This document shows, in pieces, positions 3,202 to 24,534 of a stretch of DNA of 39,992 nucleotides. Positions within the stretch are counted from its first letter, which is position 1, and each line of letters begins with the position of its first letter. Made by a program: the position numbers and the translations under genes. Where the stretch lies: the UHGV virus genome UHGV-0186582, one strand, 5' to 3'. Below the pieces are notes generated by a model. It was not told where the DNA came from and ran no database searches. It saw only the letters and a list, made by a program, of their open reading frames with translations. Origin of the DNA: a virus.

Positions 3202-3554
3202 TACGCCTCCGATGTAACAGTCGTTATTCCATAAAGAGTGTCGATTTCAGCGGAAAACATGACACGTCGGGTCGTGGTATCCACCGTCGTATTGAAAGAG
3301 AGGATTGATTTAACGCCCCGCGTTTCGAGGATGCGCTTACGGATCGCCAGGTTGTAGGTTTCCGGCTTCTGCTTACCGAGTACGGACTGGATCCACGGAG
3401 TCCCCTCGGTGGTGTCGAGAAACCATTGCCCATACCACAATTCGAATCGCGTTTTTACCGCCTGCGCCACGGCCTCCGGTGAGTTAATCAGCCAGGTGTC
3501 ATCACCGCTGCCAAAGGTATAATCGCCATCGGCGTCTTCACGTCTGTATCGCAT
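3201..3554 (-). CDS. Baseplate wedge protein (gp25/GPW-like, Mu gp46-like)
   Basis: 117 aa; size and position between spike and J-like gene. Confidence 0.5.
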   Translation of the reverse strand: MRYRREDADGDYTFGSGDDTWLINSPEAVAQAVKTRFELWYGQWFLDTTEGTPWIQSVLGKQKPETYNLAIRKRILETRGVKSILSFNTTVDTTTRRVMFSAEIDTLYGITTVTSEA

Positions 3555-4306
3555 CAGTTCACCCCGTCTGTGTTGCTTCCGCCTCGCTGAACCCCGCCGT
3601 GCGTGTGAGTATCATCAATTGACTTGCCGTTAGCTTTAACGGTACCGATAAACTCGACAGCGCCGGTGATTTTGGATGCAACTCCAGAAGCAACAGACCC
3701 CACCATTCCACCCAGCCAGGACAGTAGCCCGTGAATGGTTACTTTCGCCGAGAAGTCGGCCAGCGGGGTAACTACATCCAGACCGCCAGGCGCTACGATT
3801 TTAATTTTCTGCGTATCCGGATTAAGGTCGATGTACGTACTTCCATCAACACTTCGAAGCTGCGCCGACGTGGTGCTGACATTCTTAATTTTGTTGGGCT
3901 GAGATATTTGACCCACTGAGCAGGTGGCGTCGGACAGGTCATGTATGCGGTCGTCGACAGGTTCCTGCACTCCACCGTTTTGCCAGAAGAAATCAATACA
4001 GCGGTCTTGAAACTTAAGTTCGCACTCATCGCCGGGGCTCACCGGCAACGTTAAAGTAACTCCCCCGGCCGTTGGGAATACCACGGGAACATCCACCAGC
4101 AGCGGGTAAGGTTTTGTCACCCGGTTACCATCGTTATCGATCTCAACGTAACGGATAGCAGGCTGCACAACCGCCGTAACCGCGTCAGAATCGAATGACT
4201 GAATAATGCCAGGCAAAGCGACTCGGATCTGGTTCTTTGTTGTTTCCCGTTCAGATTTGAATGTTTCAGCAAGGTCGCCGCTGCGGGTCTGGTCAGATAC
4301 TGCCAT
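3554..4306 (-). CDS. Baseplate spike / assembly protein V-like (Mu gp45-like)
   Basis: 250 aa; ATG at 4304-4306 with GGAG RBS upstream; position in baseplate cluster. Confidence 0.5.
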   Translation of the reverse strand: MAVSDQTRSGDLAETFKSERETTKNQIRVALPGIIQSFDSDAVTAVVQPAIRYVEIDNDGNRVTKPYPLLVDVPVVFPTAGGVTLTLPVSPGDECELKFQDRCIDFFWQNGGVQEPVDDRIHDLSDATCSVGQISQPNKIKNVSTTSAQLRSVDGSTYIDLNPDTQKIKIVAPGGLDVVTPLADFSAKVTIHGLLSWLGGMVGSVASGVASKITGAVEFIGTVKANGKSIDDTHTHGGVQRGGSNTDGVN

Positions 4307-4320
4307 TTAGTAGGCTCCAG

Positions 4321-4348
4321 AAAGCAAAAAACCCGCCGGGTGGCGGGT
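4321..4348 (-). terminator. Rho-independent terminator closing the inserted cassette
   Basis: Minus strand reads AAACCCGCC-ACCC-GGCGGGTTTTTTGC immediately after the TAA stop (4349-4351) of the 138-aa gene. Confidence 0.6.
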
Positions 4349-4765
4349 TTATGAATCGTAGGTTTTCAATTTTTCGAGTTCATCAGGAGGAAGTTCTATG
4401 AAGGTTTCCTCTGCTAATTTTATCAGCCTGGGAAGCATCGAATCAGCTTGCTGATGAGCGTTTGGGCTGATGATTGCCAATATCTGATAGTGTTCATCGA
4501 TATAAAGATGCTGAGCATATACCAAAAAATTATCACATGTCCGTTCACTCAGAGATGCTTCTGGAGGCCAGGGTTTATCGCCAGGTAGCTTTAAGTGAAT
4601 TTTCCTGATGTTGGCAGCCATCGCATCATAGTTACGTTCAAAACCGCCTAACGAACCAAAACACCAGAACTGGGAACCCTTTGAAATATAATCGGCAAGC
4701 ATTTGAGCATACTTATGTGCTGCAGCTAAATGACGCAATTCTCCCGTTATACTGACTTTTGCCAT
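4349..4765 (-). CDS. YafO-like toxin domain protein (putative mRNA interferase-type toxin)
   Basis: 138 aa; motifs LADYISKG, KIHLKLPGDKPWPP, SERTCDNFLVYAQH, YQILAIISPNAH, LIKLAEETF align with recalled E. coli YafO (TADFISYKRDG, HIHLANENNPFPP, SRTNDEAHLVYCQG, WLLIAILKPEPH, KIGKMAEAF); from memory, not an HMM search. G+C about 40 percent, below flanking tail genes. Confidence 0.5.
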   Translation of the reverse strand: MAKVSITGELRHLAAAHKYAQMLADYISKGSQFWCFGSLGGFERNYDAMAANIRKIHLKLPGDKPWPPEASLSERTCDNFLVYAQHLYIDEHYQILAIISPNAHQQADSMLPRLIKLAEETFIELPPDELEKLKTYDS

Positions 4766-4766
4766 G

Positions 4767-5339
4767 TCACATCCATTTAGGGGCGTCGGCTCCCAGCATC
4801 TTATGCGATGTAGAGATCAGTTCAATAGCCTCTTCACGGGTAACATTATCTGACAAGAGTTCAGCCAGGAAAGGCTGCGATTGCCTAACTTCAGCGGCCA
4901 ACTGAGTTGCAGTGTTCTCGACGGCGGTCAACGCACGAACATATTTGCGTTTTAATGGGCGCAACATTTGCAGATGGCCTTGCCACATAGGGGACCTTTC
5001 CGCTTCAGAGAACATATCCACTAAATGTCCTTTAGCATTTCGGCATGCCTTGGCAAGACCTTCGAGATGGGATAAAAACCCGTCCGGAAGCTCATCAACA
5101 ATGATTCTTCCATTTCGAAAAGCTTCGAGATGAGACATGCCTTCCTTCGCGGTATTTTCGATTTCTTGAGCGCGTGCAGCAATCGCGGTACAACGACGAA
5201 ATGCCTCTTCAGCATCTAATCGTTGTGGCAGTTCACAAGCATTAGAGATCAGGGGTTTGAAAGCACCGTTAACAGCTTCCTGAACCTGATTCATTTGTTG
5301 TGTAATTGTTGCCAGCGCAAATGCGTAGCTAATCGCCAT
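4767..5339 (-). CDS. Hypothetical ~190-aa protein, upstream partner of the YafO-like gene (candidate antitoxin/immunity); no recognised family
   Basis: Stop TGA is 1 nt from the downstream ATG (TGA-C-ATG); likely start is the ATG at 5339 with GAGGG RBS (ORF track starts at TTG 5345); no resemblance to YafN/Phd-type antitoxins that I can see. Confidence 0.5.
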   Translation of the reverse strand: MAISYAFALATITQQMNQVQEAVNGAFKPLISNACELPQRLDAEEAFRRCTAIAARAQEIENTAKEGMSHLEAFRNGRIIVDELPDGFLSHLEGLAKACRNAKGHLVDMFSEAERSPMWQGHLQMLRPLKRKYVRALTAVENTATQLAAEVRQSQPFLAELLSDNVTREEAIELISTSHKMLGADAPKWM

Positions 5340-5352
5340 ACCCAATCCCTCT

Positions 5353-5367
5353 GTCGTTTTAAACGAC
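5353..5367. promoter_or_regulatory. Perfect 15-bp palindrome GTCGTTTTAAACGAC in the AT-rich region upstream of the cassette; candidate operator
   Basis: Read directly; lies just upstream of the RBS of the 190-aa gene inside a 162-bp AT-rich intergenic region (5346-5507). Confidence 0.3.
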
Positions 5368-5507
5368 TATACACCACTTATTCAAAGTTAGCTGAGCGCT
5401 AAAAGTTCGCAAAGTTTAGTGATCATGCAACCACCTAGCAAGCGATAAAAAATCATTATTTAGTGAATGTGAACAAACTCAACACTATGCAGAAATGTAA
5501 CTTTTGG

Positions 5508-5861
5508 TTAACCATCAACCTTTTTACACGGGAAAGAACCGATGATTTTCGGCGCGTCCATGCTGTTCTGCAGTAGCTGAACGTTCAGAAAGCGCGTTTC
5601 GGTACCAGGGCGACGAATGTATTCAAAGCCGTAGTTGTTACCGTCTTTGGCAGGCATGAGGCCCATGTCTGCCTTCATACCGTTGCCGCTACCGAGCGTT
5701 TTAATTTTCTGGGAGGTAACAGTCTCACCATTAATCCTGAACAATGAATCAGGAACCAACTCTAATTTATAACCACCACACTGAAGCGTGACGCCGCCAG
5801 GATTCGCGGCAAATGCCGAACCTGAAAGAAAACAGAGTCCGATAACAATCCACTTTTTCAT
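5508..5861 (-). CDS. Small secreted protein with Sec-type signal peptide; unknown function
   Basis: 117 aa; N-terminus MKKWIVIGLCFLSGSAFA-ANPGG; two Cys in mature part; 2-nt gap to upstream baseplate gene. Confidence 0.5.
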   Translation of the reverse strand: MKKWIVIGLCFLSGSAFAANPGGVTLQCGGYKLELVPDSLFRINGETVTSQKIKTLGSGNGMKADMGLMPAKDGNNYGFEYIRRPGTETRFLNVQLLQNSMDAPKIIGSFPCKKVDG

Positions 5862-5863
5862 TC

Positions 5864-6928
5864 TTATCCTTCCCTCTGCAGAGACGAAGTAGAGCGGAGA
5901 TCCGCCGCGCCGCGCGCTTCACACATCATGTCCATGTACCACGCCTGGCCCCTTGTGTCGCCAGTGTACATAATCCCGCGCACAATATAAACGCCATCTG
6001 TTGCGATGCTGGCAGGCTGCGCCGTGGTGCCGCTGAGCGTGATATTTCCGTCCGTGTTCTGGTCGGTGATCTTCCCACCAGCCATCGCGATATCATTGTT
6101 CGACAGCGCGGTGCGGTACACGGAAGCCTGATCCAGCTGAATAAGCCCGTTAACCCGGATGTTCGGATTAATGAGCGCACGGACGTTTACGCCGTTACCG
6201 ATGGTCTGCTGCGGCATGCCAATAAGCCCGGTAGCACTGTTGAGCACAATCGCTTCGTGAACATATTCGTTATTCGCCACCATCTGGCGCTGACCGTCCA
6301 CGAATTGCCATGTTGCGCCACATTGCCCGGCTACGTTATCCATTAGATGCCGCGTCATGCCAAAGAGCACCCGCCCCCGGGGGAATACAGTAGCAGGCAT
6401 TTCAGGCGTCAGGCCTTCGGTCGCGCCTTTGGCTTCGAAGTCTTTCATCAGCGCACGGTTCACATCAGCGACCGTGTAACCGGCAGCCAGCGTCTGTGAG
6501 GTTATACTGGTGGCAAATGCCAGATCCGTATCTGCTGCCTGAATCAGGACATAGGAATCAATAGGGCTGTCTTTTCCTGTGACCGAGTAGCGAATTTCTC
6601 CGCTGAAAATCAGCCCGTAGTTGCGGCCATCACTCTGGCCCACATCTGCCGCGTCGACTTCGCGCACGGTCCCGACGTCGCTTGCCGCCACCTCAGGCGC
6701 GATACCGTCGTAACCGGCAATCAGCCGCACTTTCGAAAACTCCTGCCCGGTAATTCGGTTCACAGTATCTGCCGAAAGGTTATAAATTTTGATAGTCCCT
6801 ACCCGGGACGCGCTGCTGATGTTGAACCAGTCGATCGTAAAGGTGACTTTGAAATCACTTAGCTCAATTCCCTGACCATTCCCGTCCACAAGCTGCAGCT
6901 CGAAATGTCTCATCCAGTTCTGTGACAT
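5864..6928 (-). CDS. Tail/baseplate hub-like protein (Mu gp44-like position)
   Basis: 354-aa ORF in tail cluster; assignment by position. Confidence 0.45.
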   Translation of the reverse strand: MSQNWMRHFELQLVDGNGQGIELSDFKVTFTIDWFNISSASRVGTIKIYNLSADTVNRITGQEFSKVRLIAGYDGIAPEVAASDVGTVREVDAADVGQSDGRNYGLIFSGEIRYSVTGKDSPIDSYVLIQAADTDLAFATSITSQTLAAGYTVADVNRALMKDFEAKGATEGLTPEMPATVFPRGRVLFGMTRHLMDNVAGQCGATWQFVDGQRQMVANNEYVHEAIVLNSATGLIGMPQQTIGNGVNVRALINPNIRVNGLIQLDQASVYRTALSNNDIAMAGGKITDQNTDGNITLSGTTAQPASIATDGVYIVRGIMYTGDTRGQAWYMDMMCEARGAADLRSTSSLQREG

Positions 6929-21405: not shown

Positions 21406-21924
21406 TCACTTTGGCAGTCCGGGGATCGATATTTGCGCCTGCTGCTCAAGCCTTTTGATTCTTGCTATGAGTTGCGGTTTTTTGATCCTGCCCCAGCGGT
21501 TCAGCAAGCGTCCTGACATACTGGCAACATCCTTTTCCTTCATGAACTCCAGCATTAACTCGTTGTGCTCTCTTTGGTATGAGTGAGCCATCTCCATCAG
21601 CCTGTCACGCATCCAATTAAATGCTTTGATAAACGCCTCTTTGATGGCGGCAGCTTTTTTGCCGGTAAACGACATGATGATGTACATCGCACCGTCTTTG
21701 GAAATTTCATATTCAACATACTGATTACCCTTGTGTTCATAGGTAACCCGCGAAAAGTTGCTGGTTAGAAATTCATCCGAACAGTCTAGCTTTTCGATTT
21801 TCTGAATGATGTGGTGATGCTGCTTGTCGAAGTAAGCTGCTACCTTGCGGGAGGTTGTGATCACGCGATCACCAGAAACAACCACCATGTCCCGGAAATC
21901 GAGATTAGCCAATTGATGATTCAT
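21406..21924 (-). CDS. rha: Rha-family phage regulatory protein
   Basis: N-terminal motif VVVSGDRVITTSRKVAAYFDKQHHHIIQKIEKL matches recalled Rha signature; lies between lysis and terminase as in P22-like phages. Confidence 0.5.
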   Translation of the reverse strand: MNHQLANLDFRDMVVVSGDRVITTSRKVAAYFDKQHHHIIQKIEKLDCSDEFLTSNFSRVTYEHKGNQYVEYEISKDGAMYIIMSFTGKKAAAIKEAFIKAFNWMRDRLMEMAHSYQREHNELMLEFMKEKDVASMSGRLLNRWGRIKKPQLIARIKRLEQQAQISIPGLPK

Positions 21925-24008: not shown

Positions 24009-24038
24009 ATTATGGCTAAATGGCTAATTGCATGTCAA
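24009..24038 (-). promoter_or_regulatory. Late promoter pR' candidate (TTGACA-18 bp-CATAAT) overlapping the 3' end of the Q-like gene
   Basis: -35 TTGACA (rc of 24033-24038) and -10 CATAAT (rc of 24009-24014) read on minus strand; stop of upstream gene at 24016-24018. Confidence 0.45.
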
Positions 24039-24534
24039 GGCTTTTAACAGCAACATGCTTAACTTTCTCAACACGTTTACGCATTTTGAAAGCATTTTGC
24101 ATCGGCTGGTATAAAACAAATAATGACGCTTTCAGGATGTCGTCAATTTCGTTTCTACAGGTTGCCAGTGAAGGTTTTCTCCATCCCTCGCCACCACGTC
24201 CACACATCTTGCGTGGCTTTGCAGTCGCGTGATAGTAGGATGCAATTGCTCGCTTAGATGAACCATGAGCGTAGTAGCTGAGGAGGATGCTAAAGGCTTT
24301 CTTGTCAATGTACATGACGGAATCGACGACCTGAGAAATCAACATTCCATCATCATCATTACACATTGGCCTTGTCATAACTCTTCCCGGCTCTACGCTC
24401 TCCATGAACTTCGCTATTACGCTGCTCATGCGCTTTTCCAGGCGGCCTGAATAAACCCATGCGCCCCACAGTTCAAGCCAGCCATTCAGCCAATCGTGCT
24501 GTTCTTTGGTGAGGTTTAGTTCTCTTATGCTCAT
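24016..24534 (-). CDS. Late-gene antiterminator Q-like protein (non-lambda type)
   Basis: 172-aa ORF between ninH and the pR'/lysis region; not similar to lambda Q as recalled; assignment by position and promoter context. Confidence 0.5.
   Translation of the reverse strand: MSIRELNLTKEQHDWLNGWLELWGAWVYSGRLEKRMSSVIAKFMESVEPGRVMTRPMCNDDDGMLISQVVDSVMYIDKKAFSILLSYYAHGSSKRAIASYYHATAKPRKMCGRGGEGWRKPSLATCRNEIDDILKASLFVLYQPMQNAFKMRKRVEKVKHVAVKSLDMQLAI

Follow-up and report, generated by a model that had tools for sequence, protein, structure and literature searches.

The window analysed here, a stretch of 39,992 nucleotides of viral DNA (UHGV virus genome UHGV-0186582), carries at positions 4321-5507 a two-gene cassette that is most likely a moron working as a type II-like toxin-antitoxin or abortive-infection system, with an antitoxin family outside the canonical ones. 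The downstream gene encodes a 138-amino-acid (aa) protein of the YafO toxin family and the upstream gene a 190-aa protein of a previously unrecognised family, which probably neutralises the YafO-type RNase by direct binding; the ratio of the two proteins would be set by translational coupling. The two genes are inherited together, they have diverged in step, and they are found as a pair in unrelated phage contexts as well as on a bacterial chromosome.

Organisation of the cassette

Both genes lie on the minus strand, as does every feature of the window for which coordinates are given below. The partner gene (4767..5339) encodes an all-helical protein that is the putative antitoxin/immunity, and possibly sensor, component, and it is followed after a single nucleotide (nt; junction TGA-C-ATG) by the toxin gene (4349..4765), which encodes a putative messenger RNA (mRNA) endoribonuclease with a RelE/BECR-type fold. 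The open reading frame (ORF) that is called mechanically for the partner covers 4767..5345, with a TTG start and 192 aa; translation almost certainly begins instead at the ATG at 5339, which gives 190 aa, because the homologues all open with MAISYAF and RefSeq also calls a protein of 190 aa. The initial annotation, which was made from the sequence alone, had described a two-gene unit with these boundaries, with a 1-nt junction and with genes of approximately 190 and 138 aa, and all of this was found to be correct.

The same annotation had described the pair as markedly lower in GC content than the flanking tail genes. It is indeed lower, given that positions 4321-5507 have 44.5% GC against 50.0% and 52.3% in the flanks, but the dip of 5-8 points, although genuine, is modest. 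Within the cassette the GC content is 41.7% in the toxin gene, 47.8% in the partner gene and 36.4% in the 162-base-pair (bp) spacer upstream of the pair, which is in line with the AT-rich upstream region that had been noted.

The YafO-family protein

The 138-aa protein matches the Pfam family PF13957 (YafO_toxin) over residues 35-120, which align with profile positions 12-98 of 101, at 62.6 bits (E = 4e-17), where the gathering cut-off is 25 bits. The same domain is present in all 28 full-length homologues. The AlphaFold model (25 homologues) has a predicted local distance difference test (pLDDT) value of 94.9 and a RelE/HigB-like predicted fold, that is, of the RelE/BECR-type alpha-beta class. 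The profile search and the predicted fold bear out the recognition of this product as YafO-like, which had initially been made by motif recall. This identification, right as it is, is not novel because, in 37 complete E. coli genomes, RefSeq/PGAP already names the protein 'type II toxin-antitoxin system YafO family toxin'.

The similarity to YafO of E. coli K-12 is limited to 25% identity, and the score of 31.4 bits on the corresponding NCBIfam equivalog PRK09885 does not reach the cut-off of 153. Judged by these sequence comparisons, the 138-aa protein is a member of the YafO family and not an orthologue of K-12 YafO. Residues H57, R75, T76, H104, and E119 are unchanged in K-12 YafO and in all of the aligned clade members. 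No solved YafO structure was found in the PDB, and the catalytic residues of YafO lack a structural definition. By analogy with its family, the 138-aa toxin would be expected to inhibit growth through mRNA cleavage, possibly in association with the ribosome.

The 190-aa partner

No match to the partner was found in Pfam, NCBIfam, PADLOC or the sequences of the PDB. Its sole match is phrog_35514, which is filed under 'unknown function' and not under a tail category, and RefSeq labels it 'hypothetical protein'. A word-indexed search of 5.8 billion proteins gave 36 clusters, all of them from Enterobacterales and all labelled 'hypothetical', while a full scan of 1.84 billion representatives with a hidden Markov model (HMM) returned only 13 proteins, all belonging to the partner's own family. 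With a profile that includes distant members, the family amounts to 54 clusters, which are found in Enterobacterales only. The PhdYeFM domain of Pfam was sought in 10 diverse members of the family and was present in none of them.

The structure prediction that had been proposed for this protein gave an AlphaFold (AF2) model with a pLDDT of 76, in which four helices of approximately 30 residues each (3-31, 43-75, 88-115, and 123-154) form a four-helix bundle, followed by 40 C-terminal residues that are modelled with low confidence. W119, H179, and W189 are invariant over the whole family, and the C-terminus carries the motif S/N-H-x3-G-x3-P-K/x-W. Of the features of a canonical antitoxin, the partner thus plausibly retains in this model only the toxin-binding tail, represented by its conserved low-confidence C-terminus.

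The charge of the two proteins varies between clades. In the clade of the window, where the toxin is acidic, the partners are near-neutral, while the clade of CUS-3, Pectobacterium and Salmonella combines the usual basic toxin, with an isoelectric point (pI) of approximately 9.7, with an acidic partner (pI approximately 5.0).

Linkage and co-evolution of the pair

In every intact locus inspected, a PF13957 gene is located directly downstream of the partner, or of a homologue of it down to 18-25% identity, the two genes overlapping by up to 16 nt or being separated by up to 3 nt. The pair spans at least eight unrelated insertion contexts. It is located between the tail chaperone and the tape measure in the siphovirus tail clusters of Pantoea, another enterobacterium and Serratia, and 3' of the tape measure in the Flyfo siphovirus. 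In phage CUS-3 and in a Salmonella prophage it occupies the P22-like immI region beside mnt, and in a P2-like prophage of Hafnia it is found between the gpA/methylase and portal genes, which corresponds to the P2 gpA-gpQ hotspot. Further copies are present in a second type of myovirus baseplate in Salmonella, in the nin region of a lambdoid prophage of Klebsiella, and at a chromosomal site of Pectobacterium between an ABC transporter and gcvP. Neither gene is truncated in any of the 37 E. coli genomes with the pair, and in a decayed locus where the partner is truncated, the toxin is gone too. With two adjacent co-directional genes that are tightly spaced and inherited together, the cassette has the layout of a type II system.

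The divergence of the two proteins is closely correlated. Pairwise identities of the partner and of the toxin, obtained from 105 comparisons among 15 natural pairs, give r = 0.97, and the partner is less conserved than the toxin in 97% of the comparisons, with a mean identity of 37% versus 51%. An antitoxin that diverges faster than its toxin is the usual pattern. Both genes are under purifying selection, the ratio of nonsynonymous to synonymous changes (pN/pS) being 0.13 and 0.11 in the most divergent E. coli pair. The linkage, together with the correlated and faster divergence of the partner, is characteristic of two cognate genes that co-evolve, with the upstream gene in the role of the antitoxin.

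Among plasmids, the only PLSDB record that encodes the partner is NZ_CP012733.1 (11340-11909; 97.4% identity), a non-mobilizable element of 41.7 kb from Shigella flexneri. It is probably of the same phage lineage, and its size suggests a prophage that was excised or exists as an episome, or else a contig that was wrongly assigned.

Predicted promoter, leader, and terminator

Conservation across loci points to a promoter with a -35 element TTGCTA (5436..5441) and a -10 element TAAACT (5413..5418). The pattern TTG(C/A)NN, followed by a non-conserved spacer of 17 nt (once 18 nt) and TA(A/C)ACT, was found in 10 loci of different phage contexts, 70-100 nt 5' of the ATG of the partner, and the -10 columns T90, A91, A93, C94, and T95 are invariant in the alignment of the upstream regions. 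This suggests that the cassette has its own sigma-70-type promoter, which moves with the pair. Upstream of the pairs of CUS-3, Hafnia, and the Salmonella P22-like prophage, no such promoter or leader was found. A generic promoter scan had pointed to TTGAGT-16-AATAAT at 5482..5455, a candidate that was dropped, given that it is not conserved across loci.

The leader contains two palindromes, which were found by eye and with RNAalifold; a repeat search of the upstream region for operator inverted repeats returned none. The first, HP1 (TTAGC-N5-GCTAA, 5388..5402), lies just downstream of the conserved -10 element, at approximately +10 to +25 relative to the inferred transcription start, and is a candidate operator, of the kind through which type II systems autoregulate, or a candidate 5' stem-loop. 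RNAalifold predicts for it a 5-bp helix with one compensatory UA to CG change, in the Flyfo siphovirus locus, and an operator palindrome and an RNA hairpin are equally possible. The Pantoea and Serratia loci have other palindromes at this position. The second, HP2 (GTCGTTT-A-AAACGAC, 5353..5367), abuts the ribosome-binding site, with the Shine-Dalgarno sequence AGAGGGA at 5346..5352, and its 6-bp helix is retained in five of five sequences. Two A to G substitutions in the Klebsiella locus preserve the pairing as U-G wobbles, and HP2 is therefore better explained as an RNA helix than as a DNA palindrome.

ToxI-like tandem RNA repeats were not found in the 190-bp upstream region, which contains merely two short two-copy direct repeats, and Rfam scans of the region in the window and of four related loci gave sub-threshold noise only. 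These results do not fit a type III system of the ToxIN kind, and neither does a toxin that has a RelE fold rather than a ToxN/AbiQ-like one. In the siphovirus cassettes of Pantoea and Serratia, the promoter and the hairpin are followed by a terminator-like hairpin with a U-run that ends 12-25 nt before the partner start (4930-4990 in locus L005, 4950-4985 in L006, 3385-3410 in L009 and the same region in L012). This leader may be either a transcription attenuator or a small RNA in its own right, of approximately 60-80 nt. The leader of the window has a hairpin in the same place, but without the U-run.

At its downstream end the cassette is closed by an intrinsic terminator (4329..4350) with a 9-bp stem (6 G-C), a 4-nt loop and a T-run. 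It shares 2 nt with the TAA stop of the toxin gene, in agreement with the strong terminator overlapping the stop that had been described, and is located 15 nt ahead of the ribosome-binding region of the spike gene. The centroid hairpin has an energy of -15.6 kcal/mol (z = -2.96 versus shuffled sequences).

The cargo slot and the host prophage

The cassette resides in a SEN34-like myovirus prophage of E. coli with regulation of the lambdoid type. Its tail cluster is SEN34/Brunovirus-like with a spike of the phi92 gp138 type, and the designation Mu-like in the initial annotation was imprecise. That annotation had also placed the cassette between the hub-side genes and the spike gene, a location that holds with one correction, namely that a conserved gene for a 117-aa secreted protein (5508..5861) is found between the baseplate-hub gene (5864..6928) and the cassette. 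This gene, which like the two genes of the cassette does not look structural, is outside the cassette and forms the upstream edge of a variable slot, whose downstream edge is the baseplate spike gene (3554..4306; PF18352, E = 1e-35, plus the Apex motif). The 117-aa protein matches phrog_3443 (E = 1e-46) and has a clear signal peptide (MKKWIVIGLCFLSGSAFA/ANPGG); one RefSeq record calls it 'STY1065/STY2022 family phage-derived protein'. It is kept in SEN34, YP3, 606R2, and all of the E. coli prophages examined, whatever the cargo, with a conserved C-terminal half and with a variable N-terminal half and length (77-154 aa).

The comparison with related prophages that had been proposed for this position revealed unrelated cargo, given that the secreted protein of approximately 115 aa and the spike are retained while the genes between them differ. 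The slot holds a gene for a 170-aa protein in vB_EcoM-606R2, for a 266-aa protein in Yersinia phage YP3 and for a 138-aa membrane protein in SEN34. It holds overlapping gene pairs in E. coli E2348/69 (256 + 131 aa; locus L024, 4318-5470) and in strain LB858871 (243 + 142 aa; L025, 4318-5477), a DUF4282 protein in another relative, and a gene-free stretch in IAI1. Unannotated cargo of the slot lies, apart from L024 and L025, at 2368-2880 of locus L002, 2435-3235 of L003, 1898-2314 of L004, and 4313-4552 of L027. A comparison of eight alternative cargo proteins with PADLOC and Pfam gave nothing convincing, the best match being HEPN_IX at E = 0.009, with one DUF4282; the two overlapping pairs have no Pfam or PADLOC match bar this marginal HEPN_IX. 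These other cargoes could be further toxin/immunity or defence modules.

The spike lineage is present in approximately 249 complete E. coli genomes and the cassette in 37. When the window is compared with strain STEC1587, the synonymous divergence is 0.015-0.023 in the cassette and 0.57 in the adjacent spike gene, i.e., about 25-35 times lower in the cassette, indicating that the cassette has recently been exchanged between diverged prophages. With a promoter of its own, as judged from conservation, a terminator, an atypical composition, and its absence from close relatives at the same position, the unit fits the definition of a moron, and the earlier description as self-contained moron cargo stands.

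A Q-type late antiterminator gene (24016..24534; PF06530 Phage_antitermQ, E = 8e-26) is encoded in the same orientation as the late genes. For this reason, and by analogy with lambda, lytic late transcription would be expected to pass the terminator of the cassette into the spike gene. Elsewhere in the window, a Rha-family regulator gene with Phage_pRha and ORF11CD3 domains (21406..21924) is located between the lysis cassette and the terminase genes, which is again typical of accessory insertions. Overall, the window is related to the PSS-04 prophage in a mosaic fashion, and in its early region many short segments have been replaced by non-homologous sequence.

Proposed function and its alternatives

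In the lysogen, transcription from the cassette promoter (TTGCTA-17-TAAACT) would stop at the intrinsic terminator and yield a short bicistronic mRNA, from which the partner would be translated first and the toxin by coupling at the TGA-C-ATG junction. The partner would then bind and neutralise the toxin, most likely via the poorly ordered C-terminal segment (S-H-x3-G-x3-P-K-W) that follows the four-helix bundle. If the supply or the integrity of the partner falls, free toxin would cleave mRNA and arrest translation, resulting in aborted infection or in the killing of cured cells. Candidate triggers are the shut-off of the host by an infecting phage, a phage product that acts on the helical domain, and loss of the prophage. 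During the lytic growth of the prophage itself, Q-antiterminated read-through may, as in lambda, keep the spike and baseplate genes expressed, and the partner would be co-expressed. An abortive-infection role is favoured because the pair recurs in the P2 gpA-gpQ hotspot, in the P22 immI region and in moron slots of tail operons, in keeping with the toxin-immunity or abortive-infection module that the initial annotation had suggested. The biological role is less certain than the molecular one, with addiction or selfish spread as the main alternative, and these roles are not exclusive.

Several observations weigh against an antitoxin function of the partner or a defence function of the pair. With 190 aa the partner is twice the usual size for a type II antitoxin, it has no ribbon-helix-helix (RHH), helix-turn-helix (HTH), Phd/YefM or AbrB DNA-binding domain in Pfam or NCBIfam, and it shows no similarity to K-12 YafN in BLASTP (E = 0.34), in line with the initial annotation, which had left the upstream gene unrecognised and had seen no YafN/Phd-like features in it. 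Its fold offers no functional clue because structure searches gave generic helical bundles only. The toxins of the window clade are acidic (pI 5.2-6.5), which is unusual among ribosome- or RNA-binding toxins. The sole counter-example to the linkage is Logan contig SRR27871428_107898 (2119-3108), where the partner is frameshifted into ORFs of 128 and 73 aa while the 138-aa toxin is intact. This could be an assembly error, or the full-length partner could be dispensable; as the alternative to an assembly error, it could also be that the C-terminal fragment with the S-H…W motif suffices for neutralisation. In PADLOC-DB v2.0.0, no family matched the partner or the toxin at E <= 1, and the literature search found no characterisation of the partner family and no test of such a pair. 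Non-defence cargo is also found in hotspots, according to the hotspot survey of Rousset et al. 2022 (PMC9122126).

The same toxin and neutraliser could serve prophage addiction through post-segregational killing, or selfish hitch-hiking, instead of anti-phage defence, which we consider possible if rather unlikely. Classical type II modules on mobile elements work as addiction or stabilisation systems, and the spread of the cassette as a selfish mobile unit between diverged prophages, the copy at the non-phage chromosomal site of Pectobacterium, and the lack of a PADLOC match would all fit such a role. The recurrence of the pair in known or suspected superinfection-exclusion or defence slots, namely the P2 gpA-gpQ locus, P22 immI, and the morons of tail operons, points instead to defence, and a chromosomally integrated prophage is rarely lost by segregation. 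A different view of the partner, which appears improbable, is that it is an accessory protein such as a regulator, sensor, chaperone or co-effector, and that the toxin is kept in check otherwise, for instance by a structured leader RNA as in type III systems or by intrinsically low activity. The unusual size of the partner and its lack of an antitoxin-like domain agree with this, as do the frameshifted partner beside an intact toxin and the conserved structured leader, which in Pantoea and Serratia includes a terminator-like hairpin with a U-run and a possible small RNA. Against it, the leader has neither ToxI-like tandem repeats nor an Rfam match, its sequence is not conserved in the wider family and was not found at the pairs of CUS-3, Hafnia, and the Salmonella P22-like prophage, whereas the protein partner is always present. 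The geometry of the coupling, the faster evolution of the upstream gene, and the correlated divergence are also traits of a cognate antitoxin.

It is very doubtful that the YafO-like protein has lost its catalytic activity or been put to another use, so that the pair would serve a purpose other than toxicity, such as the modulation of host or phage translation or another form of lysogenic conversion. Such a loss would be compatible with the distance from K-12 YafO (31 versus 153 bits on the NCBIfam equivalog), with the acidic pI in the window clade, and with catalytic residues that lack a structural definition in the PDB. Nonetheless, K-12 YafO and every member of the clade share His57, Arg75, His104, and Glu119 without exception, purifying selection is strong and the RelE-like fold is predicted with confidence, and a harmless protein is hard to reconcile with the strict retention of the partner. 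A tail or baseplate structural or assembly role of the 190-aa protein, with the toxin gene alone as the insertion, is suggested solely by the fact that its gene lies in the baseplate operon and points the same way as the tail genes. This role is effectively refuted by the variability of the slot and by the non-tail contexts. The partner is missing from SEN34, YP3 and vB_EcoM-606R2 as well as from the majority of the E. coli prophages in the lineage, which have other cargo in the slot, and it follows the toxin into P22-like immI, P2-like early, and lambdoid nin regions and into a bacterial chromosome, so that it does not count among the conserved components of the tail; its PHROG category is likewise not that of a tail protein.

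Neutralisation of the toxin by the partner can be extended, tentatively, to a more specific proposal. The helical proteins of approximately 190-200 aa might form a new family of sensor-antitoxins, in which the bundle would sense a phage product or be the target of phage-induced proteolysis, while the S-H…P-K-W tail would clamp the YafO-type RNase. The pair would then be a hitherto overlooked abortive-infection system, traded via cargo hotspots among temperate phages with at least five different architectures (SEN34-like, P2-like, P22-like, lambdoid, and siphoviral).

Comparison with known systems

YafO toxins with unfamiliar neighbours have been reported before. Leplae et al. 2011 (PMC3141249) tied YafO toxins to Phd-type antitoxins as well as to unknown ones identified through 'guilt-by-association'; none were seen on phages. 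A 2023 survey of E. coli (PMC10790755) found 13 partner clusters for YafO toxins, 8% of them known and 92% unclassified, and YafO toxins of prophages have more than once been described as orphans without YafN, as in Pectobacterium parmentieri (PMC6192338). What is added here is the partner family, its strict linkage to the toxin, the conserved promoter and leader, and the distribution over hotspots of multiple phages. A conserved, co-evolving partner would explain the 'orphan' YafO toxins of prophages and define a new antitoxin family for a known toxin. Given that it is found in validated or suspected anti-phage slots, the cassette, which is compact (about 1.1 kb with its native promoter), is a candidate defence system that is missing from current catalogues. 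The hub-spike junction of SEN34-like E. coli prophages is likewise documented as a cargo hotspot, which houses several more units of one or two genes. In practical terms the gain is modest, with one more family and no new principle.

The closest characterised relative is the YafN-YafO pair of E. coli K-12, which is part of the dinB-yafN-yafO-yafP operon. Both toxins belong to PF13957 and share the invariant His, Arg, and Glu residues and the RelE-like fold, and in both systems the antitoxin precedes the toxin with a minimal gap (2 nt in K-12 and 1 nt here). The toxin of the window differs from K-12 YafO by a 19-residue C-terminal extension, in addition to the low identity. Its partner, unlike the 97-aa YafN, is all-helical, has 190 aa and is without a Phd/YefM-type domain, and the SOS-regulated dinB operon is replaced by a prophage moron with a terminator and, apparently, a promoter of its own.

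Table S5B of Rousset et al. 2022 (PMC9122126) lists a system #123, 'YafO_toxin', with 24 occurrences in the P2 gpA-gpQ hotspot, a locus that the study presents as an experimentally validated anti-phage hotspot; system #123 is listed there apparently without a functional test. Like the cassette, it occupies a hotspot for phage cargo and pairs a YafO-family toxin with a hypothetical protein, of approximately 197 aa, that is encoded upstream. The toxins are 34% identical (E = 2e-24), and the C-terminus of the partner of system #123 (…LIRSEHKKLGLKDPTF) resembles the S-H-x3-G-x3-P-K-W motif, with a weakly supported homology that is limited to the last 57 residues or so (hhalign E = 0.003, probability 9%). 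System #123 differs in that its partner has an N-terminus reminiscent of a signal sequence or a hydrophobic stretch, the toxin is reduced to 126 aa, and the phage family and slot are different.

Defence toxins of the RelE/ParE superfamily with non-canonical or sensor-type antitoxins are known, for example in the HigB-containing toxin-antitoxin-chaperone (TAC) module and in Panacea/DUF4065 systems (reviewed in PMC11980606). These systems resemble the cassette in that an RNase of the BECR/RelE fold would be held by a dedicated protein partner on mobile elements, and an abortive-infection logic has been proposed for them. They differ in that neither a SecB-like chaperone gene nor a DUF4065 domain was found with the pair described here, and in that the partner family is found in Enterobacterales only.

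Classical lambdoid 'morons', in the concept of Hendrix and Juhala, are promoter-gene-terminator units inserted between late genes. The cassette has the same anatomy, with its probable own promoter, an intrinsic terminator, a deviating GC content, its absence in close relatives, and its position between tail genes in a late operon that is presumably Q-antiterminated. It departs from these classical morons in that its cargo is a two-gene toxin/partner unit, and in that the same cassette, including the predicted promoter, is found in several unrelated phage types.

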